A stretch of DNA of 64,000 nt. It comes from Escherichia coli. GTDB lineage: Bacteria; Pseudomonadota; Gammaproteobacteria; Enterobacterales; Enterobacteriaceae. Shown here piece after piece: positions 4,305 through 4,580 of the stretch. The notes beneath the pieces were generated by a model that was given only the letters and a program-made list of their open reading frames with translations, did no database searches and had not been told where the DNA came from. Location: the NCBI RefSeq assembly GCF_003334765.1, contig NZ_QOWT01000009.1; one strand, 5' to 3'. Position 1 is the stretch's first letter; every line of letters begins with the position of its first letter. The position numbers were made by a program, and so were the translations under genes.

Positions 4305-4580
4305 GCCGGATAAGGCGCTCGCGCCGCATCCGGCAACGGTGCCAGATGCCTGATGCGACGCTTGCGCGTCTTATCAGGCCTACAAATTCCCGCACCCTCC
4401 GTAGGCCGGATAAGGCGTTTACGCCGCATCCGGCAACGGTGCCGACTGCCTGATGCGACGCTTGCGCGTCTTATCAGGCCTACAAATTCCCGCACCCTCC
4501 GTAGGCCGGATAAGGCGTTTACGCCGCATCCGGCAACAGTGCCGACTGCCTGATGCGACGCTCGCGCGTCTTATCAGGCC
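4305..4580. repeat. REP/BIME cluster, three tandem ~100-bp units each made of two inverted REP palindromes
   Basis: Repeated gccggataaggcg...cgccgcatccggc and gcctgatgcgacgc...gcgcgtcttatcaggc motifs read directly in the sequence. Confidence 0.9.

Follow-up and report, generated by a model that had tools for sequence, protein, structure and literature searches.

A three-unit allele of the REP325 BIME-2 array in the yjdM–yjdN spacer of an Escherichia coli contig

The spacer between yjdM and yjdN in the E. coli DNA analyzed here (a single stretch of 64 kb, referred to as the window) holds a tandem array of inverted repeats, which raises the question of what this array is, how its length relates to that of the same locus in other genomes, and what it may do for the two genes beside it. 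REP and BIME arrays have been known from the 1980s onward, with REP325 as the model element of the field, and the presence of such an array carries little weight alone. The feature is a BIME-2 array, namely a three-unit allele of the known E. coli REP325; the element is already known in detail, and the only mildly notable point is that it has half the length of the MG1655 array despite a near-identical sequence. Since the length varies among near-identical genomes, including K-12-labelled ones, work that assumes the six-unit MG1655 array may not transfer, and copy numbers read from assemblies need verification before they are used as strain markers. If unit number tunes the expression of yjdM and yjdN, the locus would offer a simple natural case of repeat-length regulatory variation.

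Anatomy and identity of the array

Both flanking genes lie on the + strand: yjdM (phnA; 3951..4286, from the EMG2 annotation mapped to the window, within a longer ORF at 3804..4286, and bearing the same name in K-12) is followed by yjdN (phnB; 4644..5087, supported by ORF and annotation) and then by phnC. The array is located wholly inside the spacer of 357 bp between the yjdM stop (4286) and the yjdN start (4644). Tandem Repeats Finder reported a period of 100 with 2.8 copies and 95% matches (score 502) at 4301..4580, and a repeat search placed three in-register copies with starts at 4298, 4398 and 4498, for an array span of 4298–4580. The tandem periodicity was checked by self-comparison, in which the array matched itself at a level of 0.945 at lag 100 compared to a mean of 0.26 at other lags; across 1000 shuffles of the array, the best lag never exceeded 0.43. 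Over the common 83 nt, 75 positions match between units 1 and 2, 73 between units 1 and 3, and 81 between units 2 and 3, i.e., units 2 and 3 show 2 mismatches and unit 1 shows 8–10 against either. The array ends with the Z2 palindrome of unit 3 and therefore comprises 2.8 units, six palindromes and two inter-unit junctions. An earlier note on this DNA had described an array of inverted REP pairs (BIME) in the yjdM–yjdN spacer, composed of three units of ~100 bp. The repeat, palindrome and gene-annotation data uphold the array and its setting, and the period of 100 with three copies in register agrees with the unit structure, except that the third copy is incomplete and the total is 2.8.

REP palindromes were defined as imperfect palindromes of 30–40 nt with the arms GCC(G/T)GATGCG ... 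CTTATC(C/A)GGC and an internal mismatch bulge. A pattern scan yielded six REP motif matches in 4305–4579, three of type Y (canonical on the − strand) and three of type Z2 (+ strand), and the bulge is visible in the predicted hairpins of these palindromes. Unit 1 (4304..4380, + strand) has the structure Y-S-Z2 and equals unit 1 of MG1655 REP325 (the naRNA1 gene). It consists of a Y-type palindrome (4305..4334, − strand) with the foot GTAA instead of GTAG, a 13-nt head-to-head linker S (4335..4347, + strand; designated 'l' in Qian 2015), and a Z2-type palindrome (4348..4379, + strand). It is joined tail-to-tail to the next unit by junction 1 (4380..4404, + strand), a C-rich and locus-specific sequence of the form CTAC-AAATTCCCGCACCCTCC-GTAG (the 'U' spacer). 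Unit 2 (4404..4480, + strand; Y 4405–4434, S 4435–4447, Z2 4448–4479) equals MG1655 units 2 and 4 (the naRNA4 gene's sequence) and is followed by junction 2 (4480..4504, + strand), which is identical to junction 1. Unit 3 (4504..4580, + strand; Y 4505–4534, S 4535–4547, Z2 4548–4579) equals MG1655 unit 6, and its Z2 foot reads GGCCGCC, without CTAC. Each junction contains 11 C and 3 G in 25 nt. The tetranucleotide GTAG/CTAC, which is the guide of TnpA(REP), is present at both internal junctions and missing from both outer feet of the array (GTAA at 4301–4304 and GGCCGCC after 4579).

All three units match the Rfam family RF02564 (naRNA4, also called CssrE) over model positions 1–77/77 on the + (transcribed) strand, with 95.0, 111 and 106.7 bits, respectively, at a gathering threshold of 59.5 bits. 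The type locus of this family is REP325 in the K-12 yjdM–yjdN spacer, described as six 77-bp Y-linker-Z2 units with five identical spacers, in which naRNA2 and naRNA4 are identical (Qian 2015). As RF02564 also matches Y-S-Z2 pairs at four other REP loci within the window, a match is a sign of a BIME-2 unit and not of an RNA gene in its own right, and the nucleoid function proposed for the family is now disputed. BIME-2 elements are defined as Y and Z2 units with a short linker, in tandem copies whose number varies between strains (Ton-Hoang 2012). The array displays precisely these properties, with alternating inverted Y and Z2 palindromes, a 13-nt head-to-head linker, and tandem copies that vary between strains, and it shares all essentials of the BIME-2 family (Gilson, Bachellier, Hofnung); it differs in that its tail-to-tail linker is locus-specific and its outermost palindromes lack GTAG/CTAC. 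BIME-1 elements (RIB/RIP) are likewise inverted REP pairs at the 3' ends of genes, but they are single-copy, and in them a long L linker, which harbors an IHF site, lies between Z1 and Y (Ton-Hoang 2012). The pattern scan found no Z1 unit in the array, which also lacks an L linker and is not assigned to BIME-1, and the IHF consensus WATCAANNNNTTR has no match in 4287–4643 with up to one mismatch allowed. IHF binding at the array, one of the suggestions of the earlier note, was consequently rejected: IHF sites belong to the L linkers of BIME-1, not to a Y/Z2 array with short linkers. That note had named the BIME, but neither REP325 or naRNA4 nor the six units in MG1655, and no repeat features are listed in the MG1655 RefSeq record that we examined.

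According to folding predictions, every palindrome forms a hairpin of about −21 kcal/mol; the Y and Z2 hairpins of unit 1 reach −21.0 kcal/mol (z = −4.2) and −21.4 kcal/mol (z = −5.5), the 77-nt units about −42 kcal/mol each (z −4.4 to −5.5), and the whole 357-nt spacer −165 kcal/mol (z = −7.9). A REPIN-like long hairpin, in which Y is paired with Z2, is the less stable alternative (−34 kcal/mol versus −42.4 kcal/mol for two separate hairpins). Rho-dependent terminators are marked by unstructured RNA that is rich in C and poor in G and by bicyclomycin sensitivity; the two junctions contain 11 C and 3 G each and the 64-nt tail 19 C and 8 G, but the array overall is C/G-balanced and highly structured. 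Upstream of yjdM, a consensus scan alone pointed to a promoter-like site, CCGACA-17-TATAAT (3855..3883, + strand; 10/12 matches), as a candidate start of the transcript running into the array, which the literature assumes to be transcribed from the yjdM promoter. Directly after this site, the yjdM leader has a 5-bp hairpin and a T6 run (3896–3908), which together may represent a leader attenuator or a 5' hairpin. Scanning the + strand of 4287–4643 for a hairpin with a subsequent T-run gave no terminator-like site, and an intrinsic (Rho-independent) terminator was rejected since no hairpin of the array has a T-run after it; this is consistent with hairpin- or Rho-based attenuation. The unique spacer from the array to the yjdN start codon (4581..4643, + strand) is equally free of a T-run terminator, and the consensus scan found no promoter-like site between array and yjdN. 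A protein-coding reading of the array was also discarded, given that the period of 100 is not a multiple of 3 and that the ORFs are short, Arg-rich and repeat-derived. In one strain only, ET490 (seven-unit allele), NCBI PGAP has a partial, frameshifted pseudogene for a 'hypothetical protein' extending over the array; this call is spurious and caused by the repeat.

Length of the array in K-12 and across E. coli

The yjdM–yjdN spacer of MG1655-type K-12 measures 657 bp and contains six units, twelve palindromes and five junctions. Locus, flanking sequence and unit structure are alike in the window, which differs from MG1655 in having three units, 357 bp and two junctions, and direct comparison equates its units with MG1655 units 1, 2 (=4) and 6. 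Searching MG1655 for exact copies of the junction returned four matches, as expected from the four exact REP325 junctions. The left flank is identical to MG1655 over 2.6 kb, and the right one contains a single SNP in 3.8 kb. The window contains a second large array, a BIME-2 array between yjcO and gltP (REP321 in K-12; 33952–34216; five palindromes, period 113, 2.3 copies), and outside these two arrays the entire 64 kb differ from MG1655 at 13 positions only (e.g., 7645, 9061, 11926, 13692, 33016 and 33156). The window is thus K-12-like, but not MG1655 itself. The two arrays resemble each other in being tandem Y/Z2 arrays that are shorter than their MG1655 counterparts; REP321 differs from REP325 in its period (113, not 100), in lying between convergent genes instead of a co-directional pair, and in the naRNA4-like orientation on the − strand. 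The yjcO–gltP array comprises 5 palindromes in the window, 9 in EMG2 and 11 in MG1655, and the MG1655 reference lacks 2 bp (window 34004–34005) in the first Y unit of this array. Both large arrays of the window have exact matches in MG1655-pvir and CP8-3_Sichuan; in K-12 GM4792 (CP011343.2), this holds for the second array, and the match of the REP325 region is 99.7%.

To place this allele among other strains, 5,426 complete E. coli genomes were searched with a flank-only query, which matched 5,417 of them, and spacer lengths were read from 60 records taken at even steps down the match ranking (59 informative). The locus carried one unit in 34 of the 60 sampled genomes, two units in 4, about three in 1, four in 4, five in 5, six in 10 and seven in 1, with one partial match; the single-unit allele accounts for ~58% of the sampled genomes, and at least one Y-Z2 pair is present at the site in 59 of the 59 informative ones. 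A junction-specific query matched 2,159 of the 5,426 genomes, so that about 40% have two or more units, in agreement with the sample, and up to 8 junctions per genome were counted (in one genome). Copy-number variation among E. coli genomes, as claimed in the earlier note, is confirmed by this comparison, with a range from 1 to at least 7 units and probably up to 9. Full-length, single-piece matches to the three-unit allele were obtained from only about 27 genomes; carriers of three units include dog, pig, cattle and human isolates as well as the assemblies EMG2, MG1655-pvir and K-12 GM4792.

In alignments, the alleles with 1, 2, 3, 4, 6 and 7 units are distinguished by complete 100-bp units, their end units being the same; W3110-P, for example, corresponds to MG1655 units 1, 2, 5 and 6. 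Multi-unit alleles occur on several flank haplotypes. Judging from these alignments, whole-unit differences with fixed ends are what slippage or unequal recombination between direct repeats would be expected to produce. Exact junctions number 4 in T7Express_Crystal and 6 in Rosetta2-DE3, both of which we take to be BL21 derivatives; unit number hence also varies within the B lineage, or between B assemblies. The proposed use of the array as a strain marker benefits from a number that does vary, but this number is unstable or assembly-sensitive, with 6, 4 or 3 units in K-12-labelled assemblies.

The same sensitivity bears on the window. Its three-unit count could be an assembly artefact in which a longer array of the source strain (e.g., six units) has collapsed, an explanation that we regard as possible though doubtful. 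It would fit a window with so few differences from MG1655 (13 in 64 kb) in which both large arrays are nevertheless shorter, each reduced to the first unit, one internal unit and the last unit (REP325 with 3 versus 6 units, yjcO–gltP with 5 versus 11 palindromes). It would also fit the 3 or 4 units of the K-12-labelled assemblies EMG2, MG1655-pvir, GM4792 and W3110-P, as opposed to a verified six in MG1655. However, unrelated natural isolates (dog, pig, cattle and human) with complete genomes have three-unit alleles as well, and the deletions are exactly those that unequal crossing-over would yield. The shorter arrays could be real recombinational contractions or assembly collapses, the sequence alone being compatible with both.

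Proposed function at yjdM–yjdN and competing roles

Taken together, we consider it quite probable that the feature is a three-unit REP325 allele in the yjdM 3' UTR that would act as an mRNA stabilizer and as an attenuator before yjdN, with a length shifting by recombination or slippage. Anatomy, REP325 identity, hairpin stability and copy polymorphism are the observed bases of this explanation, whereas the stabilizer and attenuator functions derive from the literature and from the six-unit allele only. Transcription from the yjdM promoter would turn the array into the yjdM 3' UTR, an RNA with six hairpins of ~ −21 kcal/mol each. If they act as in the six-unit allele of MG1655, the hairpins would block 3'-to-5' decay and thereby stabilize yjdM mRNA, and they would attenuate transcription ahead of yjdN, such that yjdM would be expressed far above yjdN. 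Slippage or unequal recombination among the 100-bp units, which are nearly identical, would shift their number, with the first and the last remaining fixed.

The functional evidence stems from a preprint (Harris et al. 2026) that used the six-unit MG1655 allele throughout. After deletion of REP325, the RNA ratio of yjdM to yjdN was about 1 instead of about 35, with a log2FC of −1.74 for yjdM and +3.36 (about tenfold up) for yjdN, and RNA-seq of the REP325 deletion strain identifies yjdN as the downstream gene limited by the array in K-12. The array gave rise to a ladder of hairpin-ended transcripts, and attenuation into yjdN was partly Rho-dependent: read-through was 23% without and 39% with bicyclomycin, an increase confined to the array with all 12 hairpins, and fragments of 2–4 hairpins were without Rho dependence. 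Stabilization of yjdM was context-dependent, in that it was observed only with yjdN downstream, with a much greater effect upon over-expression (Harris et al. 2026). Experiments on the K-12 allele of the locus have demonstrated the mRNA stabilization suggested in the earlier note.

We infer that the three-unit allele acts like the six-unit one, probably with attenuation that is weaker and less Rho-dependent; given the behavior of the 2–4-hairpin fragments, it may attenuate differently or weakly. Moreover, the predominance of the single-unit allele in the sampled genomes (~58%) indicates that a long array is not required. As a speculation, the C-rich junctions, of which there are two in this array, five in that of MG1655 and none in one-unit alleles, might through their number cause a length threshold. 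A more far-reaching proposal would make unit number a heritable dial on the yjdM:yjdN ratio, with Rho attenuation setting in above a threshold and with variants that are contingency-like rather than neutral. In such a scheme, each extra unit would contribute two hairpins and one C-rich single-stranded junction, and the alleles found in nature, with between 1 and about 9 units, would change faster than point mutations accumulate. We rate this proposal as unlikely. A 2024 preprint on an effect of REPs near stop codons on translation counts REP325 among those no more than 15 nt away from the upstream gene; in the window, the first stem begins 18 nt past the yjdM stop and the repeat 11–14 nt past it, which is borderline for the 15-nt criterion.

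Other roles have been attributed to such arrays or can be conceived for this one. If REP325 organized the nucleoid, each unit would yield a 77-nt naRNA that, together with HU, bridges cruciform DNA at distant REPs and condenses the chromosome. The full-length RF02564 matches and the identity of unit 2 with the K-12 naRNA4 gene are in line with this model, for which Qian 2015 reported HU binding, a nucleoid that decondenses when REP325 is deleted and is rescued by naRNA4 supplied on a plasmid, and REPs that contact each other in 3C. Harris 2026, a study sharing its senior author (Adhya) with the former, confirmed HU binding of naRNA4 with a Kd of about 32 nM, but detected no stable ternary complex of HU, cruciform and naRNA4, no change of nucleoid area upon REP325 deletion or over-expression, and no enriched REP-REP contacts in Hi-C. 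With most E. coli genomes carrying a single unit at the locus, and with RF02564 matching generic Y-S-Z2 pairs at four other loci of the window, we regard a nucleoid-organizing RNA as very improbable here. By analogy with its class, the array might instead act at the DNA level, as a strong transcription-independent gyrase site or topological insulator, possibly alongside RNA effects; this appears rather unlikely to us. Gyrase targeting, also raised in the earlier note, is documented for BIME-2 elements, a definition that the array fits: they are enriched for in vivo cleavage sites, Y palindromes are preferred, and blocking transcription strengthens the signal (Sutormin 2018). Yet the cleavage sites occur in only a subset of BIME-2 elements, the supplementary files searched from that study contain no mention of yjdM, yjdN, phnA or REP325, and REP325 deletion left expression via supercoiling-sensitive genes unchanged (Harris 2026).

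That the array might be a largely neutral or selfish repeat, whose length drifts by recombination or TnpA(REP) without a selected function, is a possibility to which we give limited credence. Unit numbers from 1 to at least 7, differing even among near-identical genomes, would be expected under drift, TnpA(REP) is able to cut BIMEs and recombine them in vitro (Ton-Hoang 2012), and REP325 deletion speeds growth rather than slowing it, according to Harris 2026. On the other hand, the Y-Z2 pair has been kept in all 59 informative sampled genomes, deletion of the array has clear local effects on expression (Harris 2026), and the two outermost palindromes lack the GTAG/CTAC guides used by TnpA(REP).

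Further REP sites and features of the window

Besides the array between yjdM and yjdN, the earlier note had listed five comparable clusters in the window, all of which proved to be real REP sites in the repeat, Rfam and pattern scans. In addition to the yjcO–gltP array, these are REP pairs at 7057–7135 and 44674–44742, a tail-to-tail REP pair with a 21-nt linker inside the phn operon between phnK and phnL (12386–12468), and a single Y (63130–63159). Unlike the head-to-head pairs, the tail-to-tail pair between phnK and phnL has no RF02564 match.

Repeats of other kinds are found within genes. Within phnE, the 8-bp sequence GCTGGCGT is repeated perfectly, 2.9 times (7560–7582), and the gene is split into two frames (ORFs 7092–7724 and 7574–7942) and annotated as frameshifted in relatives. 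The phnE gene with this repeat is presumably the K-12-type cryptic allele, which reverts by slippage. The yjdP gene, annotated as a DDRRRQL repeat protein, contains a 21-nt tandem repeat (16262–16334; 3.5 copies with 75% matches) that encodes a 7-residue repeat. Finally, Rfam identified the sRNA sraL (ryjA) adjoining soxR (51981–52121) and a selenocysteine insertion element inside fdhF (31431–31485).
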